DNA of 64,000 nucleotides, from assembly GCA_966211335.1 (NCBI GenBank), contig CBIHNF010000001.1:666773-730772 (forward strand), given 5' to 3'. Shown piece after piece: positions 8,489 through 27,811 of the stretch (position 1 is its first letter; every line of letters starts with the position of its first letter). Below the pieces are notes generated by a model. The model had not been told where the DNA came from and did not search any database. It saw nothing but the letters and a program-made list of their open reading frames with translations. The position numbers and the translations under genes are program-made. This DNA is from an uncultured Alphaproteobacteria bacterium (lineage in GTDB: Bacteria > Pseudomonadota > Alphaproteobacteria > Micavibrionales > UBA2020).

Positions 8489-10984
8489 TTACGAACGCAG
8501 CACACCGCCGGTTTGTTTCGTCACCGCCTCGACAATTTTATTGCTGAGGGCGGTGATTTCATCATCCGTCAGCGTCTTTTCGACCGGCTGTAGCGTGACC
8601 GAGAGGGCCAGGGACTTCTTGCCGGGTTCGACACCCTTGCCGGTATAGACGTCAAAAATACTCACCGCCGCAATCAGGTTCTTGTCGACGCCCTTGATGG
8701 TGCGGGCAATCTTTTCGGCCTCGACCGCATCATCCACCACAAAGGCGAAGTCACGGCTTAAGGGCTGGAAGGCGGAGGGACGCAGCAGTTCTTTCGCGGT
8801 CGATTTCTTTTTCGCGACGGGCAGGCTTTGCAGGAAGACTTCAAAGCCCGCGAATTTTTCATCCCGCTTCAGCGTCATGAGGACGGAAGGGTGCAGTTCG
8901 CCAAAATGCGCCAGCACCGTGGGGCCAAGGCGCAGGGATCCTGAGCGGCCCGGGTGGTACCATTCCGGCGCGTCATTGCTGACGACAAGGTTGTTGATAT
9001 TGACGCCGCAGTTTTCGAGCACCGCCAGCGCATCCGCCTTGGCATCGAAAACATCGACATCGCGCGCCGGGCCTGACCAGTGGCGCGATACGGCCGCGCC
9101 GCTACGAAGGCCTGTTGCCGTCATCAGCTGGCCTTCGGCCTCGACCGAGCGATAGATATTGCCGATTTCAAACAAAGCGGCATCCGGATAGCCGCGGTCT
9201 GTGTTGCGGCCTGCGGCATGCACAAGGTTCGGCAAAATCGAGGGACGCATCACCGCCAGCTCGACCGAGATCGGGTTGGTGAGGGTGAGGGCCTTTTTAT
9301 TCTGCTGCGCATTCACGCCAAACAAATCGGCTGTCGGCTCGTCCATAAACGACCAGGTGATGGTTTCGCTGAGGCCACGCGCGGCCAGCATGCGGCGCGT
9401 GGAGATGGCGCGTTTGGAAAGGGTGTTGATGGCGGCTCTCCGTTCTTCCGCCGGCGGGCGCACGTAGACGGCGGGGATATTGTCGTAGCCGTGGATGCGC
9501 AGGACTTCCTCCACAATATCGGCGCTGCCTTCCACATCATTTCGCCAAGATGGCCGTACTAAGATCCAAGTGTGTTTATCATGTATCTGATAATCATTTA
9601 AATCCGAAAACGGCGGGGGAGTATTTTCATCGCTAACGCTTTCGTATTGAACATCGTCTTGCTGGTATAGAGATTCGCGAAGTGAAGAAAATCCAAGCGC
9701 TTTCAAAATCTCCTTCTGCTTCTCATGCGGTAGATCGAGACCGCCGAGTGCCAGGAGCTTTTTAGGTGCGTAGATGATTGTTGTGCGCGTAGCAGGTACT
9801 TTACCGGCGGTGACGATTTCGGAAGCAGTGCCGCCGCAGAGGTCGATAATCATCTGCGTTGCCAGTTCCGCGCCCACCGGCGTGAAGGCAGGGTCAATGC
9901 CGCGCTCGAAACGGTAGCGCGCGTCGCTGTCGATCTGCAGTTTCTGGCCGGTCTTGGCAATGGCGAGCGGTGCAAACAAGGCCGCTTCCAAAAACACATT
10001 CGCGGTTGTTTCGGTCACGCCCGTCGAAGTGCCGCCGACGATACCGCCGAGGCCCAGCACGCCGGAGTCATCGCAAATCGCGACCATGCCGTCGTCAAGG
10101 TCATAGGATTTATCGTTCAGCGCGGCAAAGCTTTCGCCTTTTTTCGCATCGCGCACGGTGATGTTGCCTTTCAGCTTGTCAGCGTCAAAGACATGCAAGG
10201 GGCGGTCAAGCGCGATGGTGAAATAATTGGTGATATCGACCAGCGTCGAAATCGGGCGGAGGCCGATGGCTTTGAGTTTATCCTGCAGCCACTGCGGCGA
10301 GGGGCCGTTTTTGACGCCCTTGATATAGCGGCCGATAAACAGCGGGCATTTGGCTTCATCCGCAATCGAGACGGTGACGGGGCTTTTGAACGCGCCCGCA
10401 ACGGGTTTCACGTTTAGCGGCTTCAGCGTGCCAAGGCCGGCGGCAGCCAGATCGCGCGCGATGCCATAAATGCCGGCGCAGTCGCCGCGGTTCGGCGTCA
10501 GGTTGATTTCAATGATAGGGTCGTTGATGCCGAGTGCATCGGCGGCGGGAGAGCCGGTCGGGATAGAATCCGAAAGCTCGATAATGCCGTTATGTTCCTG
10601 GCTCAGTTCCAGCTCCCGTTCCGAACACATCATGCCGTTGCTTTCCTGGCCGCGGATGTTCGATTTTTTGAGCGTGATGCCGGAGCCCGGAATAAAACTG
10701 CCCGCCGGCGCAAACACGCCCTTCATGCCCGCCTTCGCATTCGGCGCGCCGCAGACGACTTTCAGCTGCGCCGAACCGGTATCGACGACAAGGCATTGCA
10801 GCTTGTCGGCATCCGGGTGCTTTTCCGCCGAGAGCACATGCCCGACCACAAAGCCCGCAAAAGCTTTTGCAGGGTCGTTGATGCCTTCCACTTCAAGGCC
10901 GATGGCGGTCAGCTTGGTGCTGATGTCATCCAGCGTTGCGGAAGTGTCGAGATATTCTTTAAGCCAGCTTAAGGTGAATTTCAT
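8489..10984 (-). CDS. pheT: phenylalanine--tRNA ligase beta subunit
   Basis: N-terminal MKFTLSWLKEYL and a tRNA-binding domain, followed by B3/4, B5 (PSWRNDVEG...IHGYDNIP) and the FDX-ACB C-terminus. It lies directly downstream of pheS. Confidence 0.95.
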   Translation of the reverse strand: MKFTLSWLKEYLDTSATLDDISTKLTAIGLEVEGINDPAKAFAGFVVGHVLSAEKHPDADKLQCLVVDTGSAQLKVVCGAPNAKAGMKGVFAPAGSFIPGSGITLKKSNIRGQESNGMMCSERELELSQEHNGIIELSDSIPTGSPAADALGINDPIIEINLTPNRGDCAGIYGIARDLAAAGLGTLKPLNVKPVAGAFKSPVTVSIADEAKCPLFIGRYIKGVKNGPSPQWLQDKLKAIGLRPISTLVDITNYFTIALDRPLHVFDADKLKGNITVRDAKKGESFAALNDKSYDLDDGMVAICDDSGVLGLGGIVGGTSTGVTETTANVFLEAALFAPLAIAKTGQKLQIDSDARYRFERGIDPAFTPVGAELATQMIIDLCGGTASEIVTAGKVPATRTTIIYAPKKLLALGGLDLPHEKQKEILKALGFSSLRESLYQQDDVQYESVSDENTPPPFSDLNDYQIHDKHTWILVRPSWRNDVEGSADIVEEVLRIHGYDNIPAVYVRPPAEERRAAINTLSKRAISTRRMLAARGLSETITWSFMDEPTADLFGVNAQQNKKALTLTNPISVELAVMRPSILPNLVHAAGRNTDRGYPDAALFEIGNIYRSVEAEGQLMTATGLRSGAAVSRHWSGPARDVDVFDAKADALAVLENCGVNINNLVVSNDAPEWYHPGRSGSLRLGPTVLAHFGELHPSVLMTLKRDEKFAGFEVFLQSLPVAKKKSTAKELLRPSAFQPLSRDFAFVVDDAVEAEKIARTIKGVDKNLIAAVSIFDVYTGKGVEPGKKSLALSVTLQPVEKTLTDDEITALSNKIVEAVTKQTGGVLRS

Positions 10985-10998
10985 AGCGGTGATCCTGA

Positions 10999-12075
10999 TT
11001 AAAACGCGGCGTTCGGCTGTTCCATGGGGCCGAAGCCATAGTGCTTCAGCCAGCGGAGATCCGATTCAAAGAAGGTGCGAAGGTCGGGGATGCCGTATTT
11101 CAGCATCGCCACGCGCTCGATCCCCATGCCGAAGGCGAAGCCCTGATATTCTTCAGGGTCAATGCCGCAGTTCTTCAGCACGTTCGGGTGCACCATGCCG
11201 CAGCCGAGAATTTCCAGCCAGTCCTTGCCGGTGCCGATTTTCAATTCGCCGCCTGCACGCGAGCAGCCGATATCCATTTCCGCCGACGGCTCGGTGAAGG
11301 GGAAGAAGCTTGGGCGAAAACGCGTCGGCAGTTCGTCCACTTCAAAGAAGCGCTTGCAGAATTCGATCAGGCAGCCTTTCAGGTGGCCCATATGGGTCGT
11401 TTTATCAATCAGCAGGCCTTCCATCTGGTGGAACATCGGCGTATGCGTCATGTCATAGTCGGAGCGGAAGGTGCGGCCCGGAATAATCACGCGGATCGGC
11501 GGCTTCTGCGACTGCATGGTATGTACCTGCACAGTCGAGGTGTGGGTGCGGAGCAACCGCTTTGCCGCATCGCCCGTTTTGCCCGGCACATCGGGGAAAT
11601 AGAAAGTGTCATGCATCTGGCGCGCGGGGTGTTCCGGCGGGAAGTTGAGCGCGGTGAAGTTGTGGAAGTCGTCTTCAATCTCCGGCCCTTCCGCCACGGT
11701 AAAGCCCATGTCGGCAAAAATCGTGATCATTTCCTCGATGGTCTGGGAAATGGGGTGGATGGTGCCTTTTGTTTGCGGACGCGGCGAGAGGGTGACGTCG
11801 ACTTTTTCTTTTTGCAGGCGCTCGTTCAGCGCGGCTTTCTTGAGTGTATCGGCGCGGGCTTCTATTTCCGCAGTGATTTCGTCTTTCAGGCGGTTGAGCG
11901 CCTGGCCCATTTGCTTGCGCTCGTCCGGCGACAACTGGCCGAGCGTCTGCATGAGGCCCGTCACGCGGCCTTTTTTGCCAAGGGCGGAAACGCGCACCTC
12001 TTCAAGCGCTGTAATATCGTTGGCGGCTTTCACCGTTTCGACAATCTCGATTTTCAAAGCGTCGATGTTGCTCAT
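10999..12075 (-). CDS. pheS: phenylalanine--tRNA ligase alpha subunit
   Basis: Class II aaRS motifs ([26 protein letters not shown]). The start is set at MSNIDALK (ATG at 12075), giving 358 aa. The 437-aa ORF extension overlaps the ferredoxin gene and is rejected. Confidence 0.92.
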
Positions 12076-12101
12076 CGTTTTATCCTTATCGTCTTTATCT
12101 T

Positions 12102-12437
12102 TTACGGTTCCGAGCCGGGCGTCAGCGTCACGGCAAGGCCATCCAATTCGGTATTCATGATGATCTGGCAGGACAGGCGCGAATTGTCTTCCACCGCAAA
12201 GGCGGAATCCAGCAGCATATCGTCTTCTTCCTGGCTTTTCGGCGGCAGCCGGTTCAGCCATTCTTCCGCCACATAAACATGGCAGGTGGCGCAGGCCATG
12301 GCCCCGCCGCATTCGGCCTTGAGCCCGAGGGCCGGGTCATTCATCCCGTAATCGCGGATGATTTCCATGACGCGCCAGCCTTCGATGGCTTCGAGTTCGT
12401 GCGCCTTGCCGTCGCGGTCGGTCACGTTCAGCATCAT
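12102..12437 (-). CDS. 2Fe-2S ferredoxin (adrenodoxin/putidaredoxin type)
   Basis: Cys pattern [12 protein letters not shown]...C in a 111-aa protein. Confidence 0.85.
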
Positions 12438-18907: not shown

Positions 18908-18928
18908 AATAAGTTATCTCAAAATTAA

Positions 18929-19213
18929 ATGCCAAAAACACAAACCACTCTTCTTTTTCCAACCTATTCTTTCGTCGGGATTAGCTGCGCTTTTTGGGGT
19001 TTTTTTGTAACCGGATTTGTATCGGTGTCAGAGGAAAATACGGCTCTGCACTTAGCGTTTACATGGGTGCCGATAGCTTTTTTGTTGTTTTCTCTTTTTG
19101 TACCTGTCTGGTATCGGCATAAAGGAAAATTTATACAGGGTTTCTATGCTGCTCTTGGCTCAGCGGTCATTTCAATTCTGCTGGCCGCTTACTTGATGCA
19201 AGGCTGTTGTTAA
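18929..19213 (+). CDS. small membrane protein (94 aa, about 3 TM)
   Basis: Hydrophobic helices in a low-GC ORF. No shadow ORFs, as expected at low GC. Confidence 0.45.
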   Translation: MPKTQTTLLFPTYSFVGISCAFWGFFVTGFVSVSEENTALHLAFTWVPIAFLLFSLFVPVWYRHKGKFIQGFYAALGSAVISILLAAYLMQGCC

Positions 19214-19264
19214 AATATTCAAAATGACCTGAATTTCTTTAAGATACATTGTCACAAAGAACTT

Positions 19265-20002
19265 TTGAGAACTGCGCCGCAAATGCCCCTTCGACAAACA
19301 ATAAATCTAAAAGCTGTGGCAATAGGCTTTCTGACTGCAGCAGGAGTCACCATCTCCGGCATTCTCCTATTCTTGGCAGCAGCAAAACTAATTTCCGCCC
19401 CAATCGCGCTTTGGAGTGAATTCTCCGGAATGGTTTTCGTCGCTACTATATGCGCGGGTGTGGGTGGATATGTTACCGGCCGACTAGCCCGAAGCGCAGA
19501 ATTGGTAAATGGACTCGCCCTAGGCGTCCTTTGCCTCTGCGTCAGCTTATATAACCTCTATGACACATATGTGCACCCGATGACGATTAGTGACGGAGTG
19601 CGTCTTATAAATGTAAACAGTTTGGAGGTCGGCATATTTTCGCTCGTTTCAGTCGTGCCCATCGTATTGTTGGGCGCATACTGTGCGAGGAGAAAGAGCT
19701 TTCGTTCGGCGACGAATACAGAGGCCGCGGTCTTCGACGGGAATGCATTTGTCATTGCATTGTTATTTAGCCCAATTGTCTTGTTGCTCAGCACAGGCGA
19801 ATGTACCTGCATAGGGTTCCCGATGCCTTGGCAAATCTCTTTGGACAACGCTTTATCCATTTCGGCTGTTGGCGTGCTTGGTCTGTACTGGCTCGCATTA
19901 CTCGTTCCAAGATTTGAAAAATTCAAGAAATATAAATTACTCTATATTGCTACAGCATTGGCAACTGCTCACATCCTCTACGACACTTGGATATTTTCGT
20001 AA
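19265..20002 (+). CDS. multi-pass membrane protein (245 aa)
   Basis: At least 6 hydrophobic segments; low GC. Confidence 0.5.
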   Translation: MRTAPQMPLRQTINLKAVAIGFLTAAGVTISGILLFLAAAKLISAPIALWSEFSGMVFVATICAGVGGYVTGRLARSAELVNGLALGVLCLCVSLYNLYDTYVHPMTISDGVRLINVNSLEVGIFSLVSVVPIVLLGAYCARRKSFRSATNTEAAVFDGNAFVIALLFSPIVLLLSTGECTCIGFPMPWQISLDNALSISAVGVLGLYWLALLVPRFEKFKKYKLLYIATALATAHILYDTWIFS

Positions 20003-20046
20003 TGGAAGTTACTTATCAAATTTCTTGAATTGTCCACTGGAGTAAA

Positions 20047-20976
20047 ATGGCCGCCATAAGTCACATAAACTGGATAGGTTTTCTGGCGCTTCTTGGTTTC
20101 CTGCCCTGCTGTATAGGGGCGCTCCATTTTGCCGCAAGGAATGTCTCCAACACGCTATCAGGTTCGTTTTTGCGGAGGATGATGCTTCAAACGCAAGCCA
20201 TAAGCTTTATGCTGGCTGCTATACTGTTTGCAGCCGTCGGAGAAAATTGGGGTGGTTGGGATATAGACTTTCTCTTCAAGAGCGTATCGTCGTCGCCGCT
20301 AAAGGAATGTCGCGCAACGGATAAAAACTGCAATCCATACGATGCGCCGGAGAATCGCGCAGTCTTGAACAATAAGAACCCGCCGCCCAAATCTATTAGC
20401 GCTAGATCTCAAGTAAAATTTTTTAACCCGTACGGTAATTGGCGTGAAATAGCTGCGCCAGTTGACGCTATAACGCAGAAGATATTTGATGCCGTGGATC
20501 GTGGCTTTATCGATGTTGGCGAATTTGAGAAATTAGATTTTCAAAACGGAAATCCAAATCAAGGCTGGCGTAGCAAGGGATTAAAAGCATACAAAAGTTC
20601 TGAACAAGAAAATTATTTTCTGTTCCCGCGAGATTCGATCGAAGGCAAAAATTTAGAAAAAAGTATTAACGCGCTCGTAGGGCTTCCTGCCACTTCTTTA
20701 AAAATTAATTTACATCGTGAGGTGGACGGCGACACTATTTCCGATAGTCTTGTATTGGTAATATCAGATATCCGTGAAGAGGTTTGTTCCGTCCACGGAG
20801 GAATAAAAAGCATGGAAATAAAAATATTCAATGATAATCACCAGCCAGTGGCAGAGTCGAAGTCATTTACAGGCTGCGTCAGAAACACTGATGGAAGAGT
20901 CTATCTTTTTGTACCATTTGCGGGGCGTATCTATACGCATGGAAAGTGGTGGTTAAATCGGCCGGGCGTTTTTTAA
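20047..20976 (+). CDS. membrane-anchored protein with about 230-aa soluble domain (309 aa)
   Basis: Two N-terminal TM segments followed by a hydrophilic Cys-containing domain; low GC. Confidence 0.5.
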   Translation: MAAISHINWIGFLALLGFLPCCIGALHFAARNVSNTLSGSFLRRMMLQTQAISFMLAAILFAAVGENWGGWDIDFLFKSVSSSPLKECRATDKNCNPYDAPENRAVLNNKNPPPKSISARSQVKFFNPYGNWREIAAPVDAITQKIFDAVDRGFIDVGEFEKLDFQNGNPNQGWRSKGLKAYKSSEQENYFLFPRDSIEGKNLEKSINALVGLPATSLKINLHREVDGDTISDSLVLVISDIREEVCSVHGGIKSMEIKIFNDNHQPVAESKSFTGCVRNTDGRVYLFVPFAGRIYTHGKWWLNRPGVF

Positions 20977-21010
20977 AAACGAACGATTTAGGTATAAATC
21001 ACCTCTAAAT

Positions 21011-21048
21011 AAAAACAGCCCCGACCAATGAAGGTAAGGGCTGTTTTT
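21011..21048. terminator. bidirectional rho-independent terminator candidate
   Basis: AAAAACAGCCC ... GGGCTGTTTTT forms an 11-bp perfect stem flanked by an A-run and a T-run. It sits between the convergent 20047..20976 and secB genes. Confidence 0.6.
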
Positions 21049-21108
21049 ATTTCTCTCATCACCCGCCATCTTCCGGTGGATTTTTTTTAAAATCAAAAAC
21101 GGCGTCAA

Positions 21109-24297: not shown

Positions 24298-25116
24298 ATG
24301 GCTGACGTCACATCACCCTTTGGCACCTATAAGCTCAACAAACGCAAGGATCAGTTCCTGCGCTGGGGGCAGGGCATGCCCGTCAGCTGGCTCGGCCGCC
24401 GCGCCGCGCTGCTGCTGCGCCGTGCCGTGCTGGAGAAAAAAATCACCACGGTTGATGCCGTGGTCGATGGCCTGAAACTCCGCCTCTACATGCAGGACAA
24501 TGTCTCCGAGCGCAAATTCCTGTTCATGCCGCAGTTTTTTGACAGGTACGAGCGCAACCTGATTAAAAACAGCGTGCCCGCCGGCGGCACCTTCGTCGAT
24601 ATCGGCGCGAATGCCGGCATCTATACGCTCACTGCCGCCGCCGCCGTCGGCGCCAACGGCCGCGTGCTCGCGATTGAACCCAACCCCGCGGTGCTCGACC
24701 GCCTGAAATACAACCTTGCCCTCAACAACTTCACCGCCCGCGTCATTGTGGAGCAGGCTTGCGTGTCCGATCATGCCGGCACGGTGGAGCTGACGCTGGA
24801 TGATACCAACCTCGGCGGCTCAAGCCTTGTCGAAACGCGCTCGGCAAAAACCCTCTCCGTCGCCTGCTACCCGCTGCTCGCCATCCTGCAGAAATACCAG
24901 CTGGCGCATATCGATGCCTTAAAGATTGATATCGAGGGCGCGGAAGACATGGCCCTCATCCCCTTCCTCACTGCCGCGCCGCCGCAACTGCTGCCGCGCT
25001 TTATCATTTTAGAAAATTCCAAAGACAGCTGGAAAAAAGACCTGCAGGGCACGCTCAAGTCCGCCGGCTACAGCCTGATCGAAACCACGCGCATGAATCT
25101 GGTGTGGAGTTTGTAA
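24298..25116 (+). CDS. FkbM family methyltransferase
   Basis: SAM motif FVDIGANAGIYTL and the DALKIDIEGAE motif. Confidence 0.8.
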   Translation: MADVTSPFGTYKLNKRKDQFLRWGQGMPVSWLGRRAALLLRRAVLEKKITTVDAVVDGLKLRLYMQDNVSERKFLFMPQFFDRYERNLIKNSVPAGGTFVDIGANAGIYTLTAAAAVGANGRVLAIEPNPAVLDRLKYNLALNNFTARVIVEQACVSDHAGTVELTLDDTNLGGSSLVETRSAKTLSVACYPLLAILQKYQLAHIDALKIDIEGAEDMALIPFLTAAPPQLLPRFIILENSKDSWKKDLQGTLKSAGYSLIETTRMNLVWSL

Positions 25117-25117
25117 G
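25061..25117. repeat. direct repeat copy 1 (57 bp; equals the last 56 nt of the FkbM gene incl. stop, plus 1 nt)
   Basis: Matches 25913..25969 at 55 of 57 positions. Confidence 0.9.
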
Positions 25118-25912
25118 CTGTCTCGATCAAGGCGCTTATGTCGCTCCCGCCGCCGCCTTCTGAAATTTTTTAAAAATCATTTTCAAGTTTTAAATCGGAA
25201 ATATTCATCAAGGGATATCCAATAGCGTGACCATGAAAATAAATAACAATGAATATTTAGATTTGGTTGGGAATGAATTTTACCAAATCGTTTATTCTAT
25301 TTCCGAACAAATGATTGATTCCAAATGGCTTGCAAAAGTAAAACCTATAAGGCGGGACACGATGGAGTCTGTCAAAGGAGGGTTTACTGTCTTTGAATCT
25401 GATAAAAATGTCATAATGGAAAAAATAAAAAAAAGGGTCGATGAGTCGCTTTTCCCCGAACTGGAAAAAATAGGCAAGCCGTCAGATTGGAATAGCGAAA
25501 TACGGAAGATATTACTCAAATGTAATGATGTGACGAAAAGGCTTATGAGGTTTGGAACCTATTCGATTGATCATCCGCCCGAACAAAAAGCTGAATATGA
25601 ATATTGGTCTGAATATGCGCAGTATTGGCATGATATTATTAAAGACACCATCGCCGTAAATAGAATGGTCGAGGCGCTGGATGACAAGGATCGGATAGAA
25701 CTCTTGACTATCTCCGACAGTAGCTTGCAGGATCCTTCGGACATTTGGAGTTTAAACGACATAGACTTTCGACTGGCGGCGTTCAGATTTTTTTCCTGTC
25801 CATCTGAACAAGAGAAAAGACATCACGAATTACAACTGGAAAGACTGGCCCGCAGGCATGACGAACTCGGCTGGAAATAAATTGTGGCCTTTAGTTGACT
25901 AACCAATCTTCG
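25118..25912. mobile_element. putative inserted element remnant bounded by the 57-bp direct repeats
   Basis: Low-GC segment with a single ORF, flanked by a duplicated gene 3' end (att-like). No integrase is present. Confidence 0.35.
25227..25880 (+). CDS. hypothetical protein (217 aa), low GC
   Basis: The only long ORF inside the repeat-bounded segment. Its start may be the ATG at 25233. Confidence 0.5.
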   Translation: MTMKINNNEYLDLVGNEFYQIVYSISEQMIDSKWLAKVKPIRRDTMESVKGGFTVFESDKNVIMEKIKKRVDESLFPELEKIGKPSDWNSEIRKILLKCNDVTKRLMRFGTYSIDHPPEQKAEYEYWSEYAQYWHDIIKDTIAVNRMVEALDDKDRIELLTISDSSLQDPSDIWSLNDIDFRLAAFRFFSCPSEQEKRHHELQLERLARRHDELGWK

Positions 25913-25969
25913 CCGCCAGCTACAGCCTCATCGAAACCACGCGCATGAATCTGGTGTGGAGTTTGTAAG
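25913..25969. repeat. direct repeat copy 2 (orphan copy of the FkbM gene 3' end)
   Basis: Still encodes ...ASYSLIETTRMNLVWSL* but has no upstream gene body. Confidence 0.9.
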
Positions 25970-25970
25970 G

Positions 25971-26669
25971 CTACTCTTGTTCCTGTTCAACAACCGGAAA
26001 ACAGTCGTCAGGTACGTCATACACAAAAACTGGCGGTGGATAATTGCTACTAACGTTGTGTTTGGACGCTATTAGGCCGAATTCTTTGAACAGGGCGTCA
26101 GGATCTTTTTCCCACTGTTTAGAGATAAACTTGAGCTGGAAAGAAATCAGGTTTTTCCCCAACAAAAATTTATGCCAGAAAAGCCGCCACCAGCTATCCA
26201 AAACTATGGCTTGTTCGCTTGGCAAGGCGATGACTTCGAAACAGAAGTTAAATCCAAAAGGTTTTCTCGAGAGCTGCTTTGGTAGATAAACGGCAACAAG
26301 TGTCATCTGATAAAGCCGCTCGTAAGGAACGAAGAATTTTTCGTCCACAAACCAGAAACCGTGAGCATAGGCTTCCAGAATGACCGGATTTTTCTCAAGC
26401 CTGATACGGCGCTTCCAAGATGCAATCGCGGCGGCTACGCAAATCACGAAGCCTACATCAAGGCCATATTGCAGCTGCCTGATAAAAATAAAATGACTGA
26501 AGGGGATAATGGTGAGAGCTGTTAACCAGAAGAGAACTTCAGAAATCGGCGAAAGGGGAAGTTTTAATTTCAAAGCCGAGACGAGAAGAGTTTTCGAAGG
26601 TCGCTCTCTTGAAATTCTCGGGGGCTCGACCGTGTAATCGGCCTCGATGGTCGGGCCGTTTTTCTCCAC
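25971..26669 (-). CDS. membrane protein of unknown function (232 aa), mostly low GC
   Basis: Two central TM helices. Its start is 1 nt downstream of the ribokinase stop and its stop abuts repeat copy 2. Confidence 0.5.
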   Translation of the reverse strand: MEKNGPTIEADYTVEPPRISRERPSKTLLVSALKLKLPLSPISEVLFWLTALTIIPFSHFIFIRQLQYGLDVGFVICVAAAIASWKRRIRLEKNPVILEAYAHGFWFVDEKFFVPYERLYQMTLVAVYLPKQLSRKPFGFNFCFEVIALPSEQAIVLDSWWRLFWHKFLLGKNLISFQLKFISKQWEKDPDALFKEFGLIASKHNVSSNYPPPVFVYDVPDDCFPVVEQEQE

Positions 26670-26670
26670 G

Positions 26671-27597
26671 TCAGGAAATCTTCACCGGCGGCTCCAGCCG
26701 CGAGAGGTTCGCTTCGATGTCATCGAGCGCCGGCATGCCGGATTGGGCGCCGAGGCCGAGGCAGGCGAGGCCTGCGCCGACAGAAGCATGATGCATGGCA
26801 TTGAGCCAGTTGTGGCCCGCCTGCAAGGACGCCGCGAAAATGCCGCAGAAGGCGTCGCCCGCGCCGGTCGTATCCACCACTTCAATGGGGAGTGCGCCGA
26901 CGCGGAAGAGGGCGCCGGCCTTGGCCGCAATCGCGCCCTGTTCTTCCATGGTGATGATGCAGGTGCAATTGATATGCGCGGAAATGACTTTCGCAATCGC
27001 GCCGGCATCGTCCGACTGCAGGCCAAAGCCACTCGCCAGCTGCTGCGCTTCAATTTCGTTCACGATCACGTAATCGACAGATGGCAAATCGCCCGCCGTC
27101 ACCATGTGCCCCGGCGAGGCATTCAGGATGGTGGTTGCGCCCTTGGCTTTGGCGCGCTCCAGCACCAGCAGCGTTTCGCGCGGGCTGGCCTCCAGCTGGC
27201 AGAGGATGATGTTTTTTTCGTTGAAGACTTCGTCCGGCAGCTGGTCGTTCGTCGCATCCATGTTCGCGCCGGGCGCGACCATGATCATGTTGGAGCCCTT
27301 CATGTTCACGGCAATGGTGGCGCAGCCCGTCGGCCGGTCGGAAATACCAATAGCTGTGGTCCAGACGCCTTGGGTTTTAAGGTTGTTGACCGAACGGCGG
27401 CCGAATCCGTCATCGCCCACTTTGCCGGCCATGGCGACTTTGGCGCCGGCGCGCGCGGCGGCGATGGCCTGGTTGGCGCCTTTGCCACCCTCGCGGCTTA
27501 AATAGTCGGCCGTGCACAGCACGGTTTCCCCCGGTTTGGGGAAATGCGCCACCGGCATGACGATATCGATGTTCATCGAGCCAAATACAATAATCAT
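26671..27597 (-). CDS. rbsK: ribokinase / PfkB-family sugar kinase
   Basis: N-terminal GSMNIDIV, the GGKGANQA motif and the PfkB signature DTTGAGDAF. The start is set at MIIVFGS; the ORF track extends to 27663. Confidence 0.78.
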   Translation of the reverse strand: MIIVFGSMNIDIVMPVAHFPKPGETVLCTADYLSREGGKGANQAIAAARAGAKVAMAGKVGDDGFGRRSVNNLKTQGVWTTAIGISDRPTGCATIAVNMKGSNMIMVAPGANMDATNDQLPDEVFNEKNIILCQLEASPRETLLVLERAKAKGATTILNASPGHMVTAGDLPSVDYVIVNEIEAQQLASGFGLQSDDAGAIAKVISAHINCTCIITMEEQGAIAAKAGALFRVGALPIEVVDTTGAGDAFCGIFAASLQAGHNWLNAMHHASVGAGLACLGLGAQSGMPALDDIEANLSRLEPPVKIS

Positions 27598-27811
27598 TCC
27601 ATCAGCATATCCTAAACACGTAAAGGGTCTATGAAATTCAAATGGTTGAAACGGCTTGTTCAAAAATTATGGGAATAAAAGCGGGCGTGTTTTCGCCGCC
27701 GCTTGACCAAAGCTAAGGGAATGAAATTAAGGGCAAATCCCTGTTGCTTCCCAAGGGGGTGGGGCGTATATCATAAAAGCAGCATAATTATGGCTTCCGA
27801 CCCCCCTCCGA

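Follow-up and report, generated by a model that had tools for sequence, protein, structure and literature searches.

The window, that is, the whole 64-kb stretch of DNA analysed here, contains two unrelated and compositionally foreign single genes, ORF217 on the forward strand and ORF232 on the reverse strand, both located between an FkbM-family methyltransferase gene and a PfkB-family sugar kinase gene, with an orphan copy of the FkbM gene end exactly between them (Table 1). The FkbM gene has orthologues at the equivalent syntenic position in the related loci L001, L002 and L093 to L095. As the sequence-only reading had held, the 795 bp between the two copies of the gene end, in which ORF217 is the one ORF, are richer in AT than their flanks, with a GC content of 39.9% against 59.5% for the FkbM gene and 57.8% for the window. 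The low-GC block extends from about 25166 to 26604, running past copy 2 and through ORF232, with native spacer from about 26605 onwards, which places copy 2 inside the foreign DNA and not at its border.

Table 1 Features of the FkbM/PfkB locus, with positions numbered from the first letter of the window.
Feature	Position	Strand	Remarks
FkbM-family methyltransferase gene	24298..25116	+	272 aa, intact; PF05050 E=5.6e-19; TIGR01444
Repeat copy 1	25061..25117	+	Functional FkbM gene end: last 56 nt of the gene plus one base
Microhomology site A	First 15 nt of copy 1	+	CCGCCGGCTACAGCC; at FkbM -57
48-nt spacer	25118..25165	+	GC 0.604; native-looking, not foreign
ORF217	25233..25880 (ATG, 215 aa) or from GTG 25227 (217 aa)	+	GC3 0.43
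Putative PfkB 3'-terminus relic	25899..25912	-	AAG ATT GGT TAG (K-I-G-stop), in register with K-I-S-stop of the resident PfkB
Repeat copy 2	25913..25969	+	Orphan FkbM 3' end, without a start codon
Hybrid A/B microhomology at the joint	First 15 nt of copy 2	+	CCGCCAGCTACAGCC
ORF232, orphan low-GC ORF	25971..26669	-	GC 44.7%, GC3 0.51; two predicted membrane helices
Terminator-like hairpin and T-run	26639..26668	+	Just before the PfkB stop
PfkB-family sugar kinase gene	26671..27663	-	Convergent with FkbM; PF00294 E=1.6e-45
PfkB 3' terminus with microhomology site B	26677-26699		AATCTTCA; site B, CCGGCGGCTCCAGCC

ORF232 stops 2 nt from the orphan FkbM stop, and its first ~10 codons overlap the native spacer. 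It matched only itself in 5.8e9 proteins, and it was absent from all the relatives compared at this locus. The terminator-like element before the PfkB stop is ancestral intergenic DNA; L095 has a hairpin and T-run at the equivalent position. The 48-nt spacer and the FkbM end are predicted to form a hairpin together (fold of 25100-25200, -27.3 kcal/mol, z=-2.45). No informative similarity was obtained when the spacers were compared with the relatives or with each other, nor was any relatedness seen among the orphan ORFs of the window and of the other loci.

The two copies form a direct repeat of 57 nt in which 55 positions are identical (96.5%), and the mismatches are those reported from the sequence alone, GGC to AGC (Gly to Ser) and the synonymous CTG to CTC. 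Both fall within the 5' 17 nt, the remaining 40 nt being identical, and the homology stops abruptly at either border. Only these two sites were recovered when a 51-nt pattern allowing up to 3 mismatches was run over both strands of the 64 kb, 0 occurrences being expected from shuffled sequences (n=100), and relaxed blastn gave no third copy in the window. Moreover, the two copies and their two mismatches recur in six independently assembled metagenome contigs (L081-L085 and L096), at least 99.7% identical, which shows that the repeat did not arise as an artefact of assembly; every one of the six contigs sampled from the species has the final, integrated arrangement. That the repeat might be a chimera produced during assembly, or might belong to a dispersed family with no link to any insertion, is therefore extremely improbable, the six assemblies having already refuted the former; as to the latter, the window holds two copies only, and the degenerate pattern was unmatched in the viral and JGI metagenome contigs scanned. 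Strain heterogeneity at a contig break was also considered for sample ERZ27336871 and rejected, since the two contigs concerned merely share a 9-nt overlap, which falls in an A/T run outside the repeat.

At the two mismatched sites the outgroup, L095, reads GGC and CTC, which leaves one derived change in either copy; divergence in place from one ancestral sequence would give this pattern. Copy 1 retains the Gly conserved in all relatives, and its CTG is derived relative to the CTC of L095. The Gly to Ser change of copy 2 hits that conserved residue, which is consistent with relaxed constraint on an orphan gene end.

The sequence-only reading had proposed that relatives should reveal an empty site, and this was seen. 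In the closest non-self relatives, which are fully syntenic and whose FkbM proteins are 66-75% identical, FkbM abuts the convergent PfkB gene, and both ORF217 and ORF232 are missing. In L093 and L094 (FkbM 72% identical) the gene order of the window is kept from CoaE to the genes past HemA, and the FkbM and PfkB stop codons overlap by 4 nt; in L095 (75%) and L001 (66%) the two genes are separated by a hairpin-rich spacer of 121 and 157 nt, respectively. The opposite outcome, relatives sharing the duplication, did not occur: the FkbM end is non-duplicated in 79 of the 80 related FkbM loci, L093 and L094 among them, the sole exception being L065 with a partial gene copy of 330 nt, which is of a different kind. 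L095 likewise has a single FkbM end. The comparison indicates that DNA was inserted between FkbM and PfkB, and to this extent the earlier view stands; its further claim, that the repeats bracket the insertion, does not, because low-GC DNA and ORF232 continue beyond copy 2. No allele with ORF217 only or with ORF232 only was found, just the final arrangement (the six contigs) and fully empty sites, and no integrase gene follows FkbM in the five closest relatives read downstream (L001-L003, L093 and L094).

ORF217, a low-GC gene, was acquired horizontally and belongs to an uncharacterised family. The earlier description of this ORF as lacking any recognisable motif was upheld by searches of Pfam, PHROG, PADLOC and NCBIfam, none of which gave a match. 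The family comprises 10 close homologues and about 87 representatives at 50% identity. The AF2 model of ORF217 is confident (pLDDT 87.5), and Foldseek returned just weak partial matches, PC4/Whirly-like and T7 Gp1.2-like, with nothing below E=0.2 in the PDB and none below E=0.01 in BFVD (best 0.018). The sequence-only reading had proposed looking for the ORF elsewhere in the genome or in phages. Four further chromosomal sites carry homologues with 41-71% amino acid identity, two of them following RsmJ and dCTP deaminase, respectively, and two preceding DUF808 and a TonB receptor; all are bare single-gene low-GC islets. No relatives were found in JGI metagenome contigs, IMG/VR, or the plasmid and phage collections. 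In Alpha- and Gammaproteobacteria, members of the family appear singly, as low-GC genes at varied loci, and at these other sites they typically lie 12-38 nt upstream of a convergent gene. Similarity to the homologues at the DNA level covers 25227-25881 only, i.e. the ORF alone; around three of them (L086, L088 and L089), the search for flanking direct repeats gave only short chance matches, and no sequence resembling the FkbM end was found nearby.

To the left of copy 2, the 14 nt that precede the repeat resemble the PfkB 3' terminus, and CTAACCAATCTTCG would putatively belong to that terminus and not to an ORF217 cassette. The 23-mer at 25905-25927 matches the PfkB terminus at 26677-26699 in 19/23 positions, its best non-self match in a search space of 128 kb (next best, 16/23). 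A score of 19/23 is reached anywhere by 3.9% of random 23-mers from the window, and here the match falls at the one place that synteny predicts. The 7 nt immediately left of copy 2 (AATCTTC) agree with PfkB at 7/7 positions and the part to the right is FkbM, the joint lying in a 15-nt GC-rich stretch in which the PfkB 3' end (site B) and the FkbM gene at -57 (site A) share 13/15 positions. The left edge of copy 2 thus looks like a PfkB/FkbM chimera fused at a microhomology, with moderate significance: the reading concerns 14 nt plus the 15-nt microhomology and was noticed post hoc, and the match alone has p~0.04, lower if its location is counted. The relatives end in K-I-A, K-L-A or K-V-S with TAG, TAA or TGA as the stop, so variation in the final residue and in the stop codon is natural. 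In the final two codons of the relic, 5 of 6 nt are not those of the resident PfkB, against just 2 of 57 nt by which copy 2 departs from copy 1, and this requires a divergent donor allele or local remodelling. A tandem-accretion model was rejected, as the third, degenerate copy of the FkbM end that was sought near the right border was not found.

On these grounds we favour, with roughly even confidence, the idea that the 57-nt duplication is the by-product of one illegitimate, microhomology-mediated recombination event at a permissive FkbM/PfkB intergenic hotspot. Two earlier versions of the locus would have existed, allele X with FkbM, the 48-nt spacer, ORF217, 18 nt and PfkB on the reverse strand, and allele Y with FkbM, 2 nt, ORF232 on the reverse strand, the terminator and PfkB, also on the reverse strand. 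A type-Y chromosome may have received type-X DNA, or mispairing may have occurred between two copies of the locus, from sisters or strains; the left side would have been anchored by homology in FkbM, and on the right the joint would have formed where site B annealed to site A, either by homology-facilitated illegitimate recombination (HFIR) or by unequal crossing-over. The product would carry both islet genes stacked and, of necessity, a second copy of the 57 nt that run from site A to the FkbM stop, with a 14-nt PfkB stump left behind. In a one-genome variant with the same joint, a tandem duplication from A to B would have been followed by a separate gene insertion into each copy of the spacer. 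Afterwards one substitution per copy would have been fixed, synonymous in the live gene and Gly to Ser in the dead copy. Such an event needs no recombinase, att site or self-mobility. The full synteny and empty sites of the nearest relatives speak for this model, as does the lack of an integrase, inverted repeats or conserved flanks, and the 18 nt between ORF217 and PfkB in allele X match the 12-38 nt seen between ORF217 homologues and their convergent genes. Against it, neither parental allele was found in the relatives or the population, and the shortness and post hoc recognition of the PfkB-like relic, as well as its divergence from the resident gene, also weigh on the negative side.

In experiments, HFIR events usually delete recipient DNA rather than duplicate it, which we also count against the favoured model. 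Illegitimate joints are said, in work from 2002 attributed to de Vries and Wackernagel, to be typically GC-rich. The locus resembles HFIR and microhomology-mediated unequal crossing-over in that a foreign segment adjoins a homologous anchor, here FkbM, the other joint falls where two unrelated sequences share a short GC-rich microhomology, and neither a recombinase nor inverted repeats nor conserved element ends are present. The differences are that the microhomology is long and imperfect (13/15) compared with the 3-10 bp reported, that 57 nt of recipient DNA were duplicated where deletion is more usual, and that the event would be reconstructed from a single scar. For natural transformation there are records of illegitimate joints that formed at short microhomologies, with a single stretch of homology as the anchor (PMC6382021), and HFIR has been described for Acinetobacter, S. 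pneumoniae and P. stutzeri in studies cited there.

The sequence-only reading had instead taken the repeat for the att-like scar of a site-specific integration, which the results do not support. Described CIMEs (cis-mobilisable elements) are far larger than an 852-bp one-gene element, and the pseudo-SCC elements at the rlmH/orfX 3' end are a case similar to theirs. CIMEs are decayed ICE/IME elements that kept attL and attR and lost their integration genes, and their attL/attR occupy a gene's 3' end, for example that of fda or of a tRNA gene (PMC5704250). A relic of this type, which we regard as unlikely here, would consist of ORF217 with a surrogate FkbM 3' end, integrated into the end of FkbM by a tyrosine recombinase, the two copies being attL and attR; the integrase would later have been lost or would act in trans. 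The locus does offer what such a relic should have, namely an integrase-less, low-GC cargo, missing from relatives, that lies between direct repeats containing the target gene's 3' end, the classic footprint, with the gene left intact and a copy of its end supplied. In addition, 57 nt is in the usual att range, and mismatches confined to the 5' 17 nt, with the conserved Gly in the gene-side copy, would fit a crossover in the identical 40 nt. However, neither an integrase nor a recombinase was present within 10 kb on either side (precomputed Pfam) or in ten atypical ORFs elsewhere in the window, an absence that had already been remarked upon, nor did an integrase lie by the tmRNA gene, whose neighbour is an aldose epimerase. 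No related element with an integrase at the FkbM end was found either. The repeats enclose only half of the foreign block, and what follows the putative attR is another foreign gene, ORF232, not the native neighbour. The four other ORF217 loci lack flanking repeats and share no att-like sequence with this one, similarity ending with the ORF and so leaving no attP-like region; viral and JGI metagenome contigs hold no match to the FkbM-end peptide pattern; the single gene end of nearly all related FkbM loci, the one exception being of another kind, tells against it as well. Moreover, a one-gene unit of 852 bp falls far below CIME size, and a junction with a stump of the neighbouring PfkB gene is not predicted by integration.

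A smaller version, in which ORF217 plus one 57-nt copy form an integrase-less mini-cassette of 852 bp, excised and integrated in trans by a recombinase from elsewhere in the genome or from a helper element and using the FkbM 3' end as its att site, seems quite improbable to us; if true, it would be the smallest CIME- or satellite-like integrative unit described, with single-gene cassettes hopping between gene ends. Of similarly low probability is a Campbell-type single crossover by RecA, through 57 or more nt of homology, with a circle bearing ORF217 and a fragment of the FkbM 3' end, derived for example from an earlier imprecise excision or from a transduced fragment that circularised. Such a crossover would leave the shared segment on both sides of the insert in direct orientation, just as seen, without an integrase, 57 nt exceeds the minimal length for RecA recombination, and the copies are 96.5% identical. 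The prior step that would place the FkbM end, the native-looking 48-nt spacer and the PfkB-like stump on a circle is, however, unexplained, the homology ends abruptly at both repeat borders, and ORF217 occurs on no plasmid or phage in the collections searched. Two other kinds of element were rejected. A transposon or IS is contradicted by the lack of inverted repeats at 25118/25912 and of a transposase domain, and by a duplication far longer than known target-site duplications, which are short (2-14 bp). An integron gene cassette is contradicted by DNA similarity of ORF217 that ends at the stop codon, leaving no conserved attC-like flank, by a fold of 25870-25990 that was no better than those of shuffled sequences, and by the absence of an integrase within 10 kb on either side.

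The locus also resembles the single-gene genomic islets that are common in comparative genomics, i.e. low-GC orphan genes between conserved genes. ORF217, ORF232 and the ORFs at 19265-20976 are all isolated low-GC3 genes between conserved syntenic genes, and the ORF217 relatives are also isolated low-GC genes at different loci. Genomic islets usually leave no informative scar, whereas here the duplicated gene end and the chimeric joint record how two of them became neighbours. The FkbM/PfkB locus does not overturn current understanding. It offers a small and cleanly documented case of single foreign genes piling up between convergent genes without mobile-element machinery, and a caution for island finding, as low-GC DNA flanked by copies of a gene 3' end is insufficient evidence of site-specific integration. 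The ORF217 family, which numbers ~87 clusters at 50% identity and has a confidently predicted AlphaFold structure and no significant fold match, may merit functional study. Finally, in a second low-GC islet of the window (18.9-21.1 kb) a duplication of a gene end was sought and none was found; its two ORFs at 19265-20976 again stand as isolated low-GC3 genes between conserved syntenic genes.

The two copies of the 57-nt repeat made of the FkbM 3' end are identical at 55 of 57 positions, as the sequence-only reading had described, and differ by GGC/AGC (Gly/Ser) and by the synonymous CTG/CTC, both mismatches being confined to the 5' 17 nt of the repeat. A 51-nt pattern allowing up to three mismatches hit only these two sites on both strands of the 64-kb window, where shuffles expect zero, and relaxed searches of the window gave no third, degenerate copy. 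Upstream of copy 2 there is no start codon that could serve it, and an in-frame stop lies at 25900-25902. Judged against the outgroup L095, the closest relative (GGC, CTC), each of the two copies has acquired a single change: the one in the live gene is synonymous, and the one in the dead copy is Gly>Ser at a residue that is otherwise invariant, as divergence in place would predict. Six metagenome contigs of one ENA study, assembled independently (L081-L085 and L096, locus 99.7-100% identical), all have the two copies and the same two mismatches between them; the repeat structure is therefore not due to assembly, and the sampled population is fixed for it.

The 795 bp separating the copies are AT-richer, as had been noticed (39.9% GC vs 59.5% for FkbM), and contain one ORF with no family match. 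The 48 nt that follow copy 1 (25118-25165) look native, with 60% GC, and are predicted to form a hairpin with the FkbM end (z = -2.45). The low-GC block extends from ~25166 to ~26604 (41.9% GC), exceeding the interval first reported, and the last 66 nt ahead of the PfkB gene are back to 58% GC. ORF217 is separated from the orphan FkbM end by a 32 nt spacer, beyond which lies ORF232 (GC3 0.51, two predicted membrane helices), whose only match among 5.8 billion proteins searched was itself. The order is native DNA, ORF217, orphan FkbM end, ORF232, native DNA; because low-GC DNA continues through ORF232, copy 2 sits mid-block and the repeat fails to enclose the foreign DNA, contrary to what had been claimed. 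A plus-strand hairpin with a T-run lies just ahead of the PfkB stop and has a counterpart at the equivalent position in L095. In L096, a low-coverage contig, two SNPs (window 26655 and 26657) fall in a hairpin overlapping the first ORF232 codons and the gene caller starts ORF232 32 codons later, so the annotated GTG start may not be the real one.

Coordinates of the features discussed, in the window and at loci of other contigs
Feature	Location	Strand	Remarks
FkbM-family methyltransferase gene, 272 aa	window 24298..25116	+	PF05050, TIGR01444
Repeat copy 1	window 25061-25117	+	last 56 nt of FkbM gene including stop, plus one base
Repeat copy 2	window 25913-25969	+	orphan FkbM end
ORF217	window 25233..25880 from ATG; 217 aa from GTG at 25227	+	inside low-GC block
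ORF232, second orphan ORF	window 25971..26669	-	stop 2 nt after orphan FkbM end
PfkB kinase gene	window 26671..27663	-	PF00294
Second low-GC islet	window 18908-21108		43.8% GC; between RNase T-like gene and SecB
Orphan ORFs of second islet	window 19265..20002, 20047..20976		GC3 0.50 and 0.43, respectively
tmRNA gene	window 41661-42021		permuted two-piece, alphaproteobacterial type; tag peptide ANDNMPARAELRLVA
171-aa gene in FkbM-PfkB gap	L002:8026-8541		Rhodospirillales MAG; N-terminal P-loop motif GGLPGSGKT
FkbM locus with partial duplication	L065:9794-12262		betaproteobacterial MAG
ORF217 homologues	L086:6394-7041, L088:1598-2251, L089:1755-2444, L090:350-997, L091:628-1272
Further orphan low-GC ORF, 205 aa	L086:4862-5479		~40% GC; no Pfam match

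The species has no GTDB representative, and identity to the nearest FkbM orthologues is 62-75%. The gene order of the window (CoaE, DUF1223, RNase T, SecB, FxsA, Tim44, MltA, FkbM, PfkB on the minus strand, HemA) recurs in the syntenic relatives L093 and L094, whose FkbM is 72% identical; the longer locus, L093, runs on through RibF and LspA. In these two relatives the stop codons of FkbM and PfkB have a 4-nt overlap. Between the two genes L095 (FkbM 75%) has a 121-nt hairpin-rich spacer, L001 (66%) 157 nt, and L002 (64%) another gene, of 171 aa, so that this spot took up different cargo in different lineages. Neither ORF217 nor ORF232 is present in any of these loci, and the proposed comparison with related genomes therefore yielded the empty site, FkbM running to PfkB in L093-L095 and L001. 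Gene order shows that the insertion is real, that the FkbM-PfkB intergenic spot is variable and that ORF217 and ORF232 are both acquisitions. L001 (DASPMW010000110.1) is labelled 'Patescibacteria group bacterium'; its gene order is alphaproteobacterial and the same as in the window (Tim44, MltA, FkbM, PfkB, HemA, RibF), and the contig is probably mis-binned.

ORF217 has no domain match in Pfam, PHROGs, PADLOC or NCBIfam. Ten homologues, 41-71% identical, were found, and a profile searched against 1.84 billion representatives hit 87 clusters (50% identity), whose representatives are nearly all 200-220 aa long, part of the family coming from gammaproteobacterial MAGs. Among 53 aligned divergent members R40, D42 and W86 are invariant and E45, P83 and P190 nearly so. 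AlphaFold predicts the structure with confidence (pLDDT 87.5): four strands form a sheet at the N-terminus, and helices come after it. Nothing in PDB or BFVD matches this model significantly, and no Pfam domain is common to the members. ORF217 thus represents a real, conserved but uncharacterised family of proteins of ~215 aa, which is a minor side lead. Members of the family stand alone as low-GC genes in both Alpha- and Gammaproteobacteria, at chromosomal sites that differ: immediately behind an RsmJ/RlmJ-type methyltransferase gene (L086, L087, L089), after a dCTP deaminase gene and a 90-aa ORF (L088), or upstream of a DUF808 gene that is convergent (L090) or of a TonB-receptor gene (L091). 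At every recovered locus the homologue has 37-40% GC and its flanks 46-64%, the gap to the convergent gene often being 12-38 nt. DNA similarity to the window (74-78%) is limited to 25227-25881, the ORF alone, with no direct repeats flanking the homologues and no FkbM-end-like sequence near them. Since contexts differ, similarity stops at the ORF and flanking repeats are absent, ORF217 is a patchily distributed single-gene islet that lacks conserved ends, an att-like flank and any preference for FkbM. Looking for it elsewhere, as had been suggested, thus gave homologues at other chromosomal loci but none in phage, plasmid, IMG/VR or JGI metagenome collections. The 205-aa orphan of L086 precedes the ORF217 homologue by ~0.9 kb, with the RsmJ gene between, and is unrelated in sequence to the orphans of the window.

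When the PfkB 3' end was aligned to the insert, the best match spanned the left border of copy 2. The 23-mer at 25905-25927, AATCTTCGCCGCCAGCTACAGCC, scanned over the whole window on both strands, has its best non-self match at 26677-26699 (AATCTTCACCGGCGGCTCCAGCC, 19/23), the very 3' terminus of PfkB, every other site, that in FkbM included, giving at most 16/23. A 19/23 match anywhere is reached by 3.9% of random 23-mers from the window, and this one lands on the sole sequence placed by synteny beside the FkbM end. The 7 nt left of copy 2 agree with PfkB at 7/7 positions and with FkbM at 2/7, and rightwards from the repeat border the sequence is that of FkbM; in a 15-nt GC-rich stretch at the joint, PfkB (CCGGCGGCTCCAGCC) and FkbM at -57 (CCGCCGGCTACAGCC) are 13/15 identical. 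These matches indicate that the joint is chimeric. Read on the minus strand, 25899-25912 gives ...AAG ATT GGT TAG (K-I-G-stop), and the resident PfkB end, in the same register, ...AAG ATT TCC TGA (K-I-S-stop); the PfkB ends of relatives are K-I-A-TGA (L095), K-I-A-TAG (L093), K-L-A-TAA (L094) and K-V-S-TGA (L001), which shows natural variation in both the last residue and the stop codon. The reading of 25899-25912 as a stump of the PfkB 3' terminus, joined to FkbM through the microhomology, is suggested rather than proved by this, since it was noticed after the fact and involves few bases.

If site A is the microhomology at the start of copy 1 and site B its counterpart in the PfkB 3' end, the joint, left-of-B to A-and-rightwards with A ancestrally upstream of B, would be the product of unequal or illegitimate B x A recombination, which would inevitably duplicate A to the FkbM end, that is 57 nt. 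The most economical history would involve two alleles of one hotspot, X (FkbM, 48-nt spacer, ORF217, 18 nt, PfkB) and Y (FkbM, 2 nt, ORF232 on the minus strand, terminator, PfkB), type-X DNA having recombined into a type-Y chromosome with FkbM homology as the left anchor and the B/A microhomology as the right joint. This would be homology-facilitated illegitimate recombination (HFIR), the original work on which is reportedly that of de Vries and Wackernagel in 2002. The 18-nt gap between ORF217 and the convergent gene in allele X fits the geometry of ORF217 homologues elsewhere, and HFIR as described for natural transformation (PMC6382021) has the same form as the proposed X-into-Y event. Within a single genome, the same joint would arise if the A-to-B unit were duplicated in tandem and each spacer copy then received its own insertion, but the last two codons of the relic would have to have changed at five of six positions. 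We give an even chance to our best explanation, an illegitimate-recombination scar recording two stacked single-gene islets at a convergent-gene hotspot. The 57-nt scar is a fresh instance of an already known kind of event, and its interest is modest.

Among the classic signs of integration only the flanking direct repeat with a gene's 3' end is present. The integrase or recombinase already reported missing was indeed not found, no recombinase domain occurring among the genes called within 10 kb either side or in ten ORFs of atypical composition elsewhere in the window, the tmRNA neighbours included, and a degenerate pattern for the FkbM C-terminal peptide had no match in viral or JGI metagenome contigs. 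The FkbM end is present twice in one of 80 related FkbM loci, L065, where a glycosyltransferase-like ORF of normal GC (10803..11933) is inserted after the FkbM gene and followed by a 330-nt (110-aa) C-terminal FkbM fragment (11930..12262), which matches the live gene end over 68 nt at 88% identity; this is a partial gene duplication of a kind differing from that in the window.

A CIME-like relic, that is a cis-mobilisable element which keeps attL and attR and has lost its integration genes (PMC5704250), would explain the repeat and the clustering of both mismatches at its 5' end, but has no positive support other than the repeat and leaves both the foreign DNA past the 'attR' and the PfkB-like stump unexplained, and we consider it unlikely. 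Campbell insertion, through RecA, of circular DNA with a piece of FkbM on it is formally possible but requires an unexplained precursor, while artefact or chance is ruled out by the independent contigs. Of the original proposal, the insertion itself stands, but the att-like scar of site-specific integration is unsupported beyond the repeat.

No integrase or island adjoins the tmRNA gene, next to which lies an aldose 1-epimerase ORF. The second low-GC islet is not present in the syntenic relatives L093 and L094 and shows no gene-end duplication; at its right edge there is a 20-nt inverted repeat (21007-21052).
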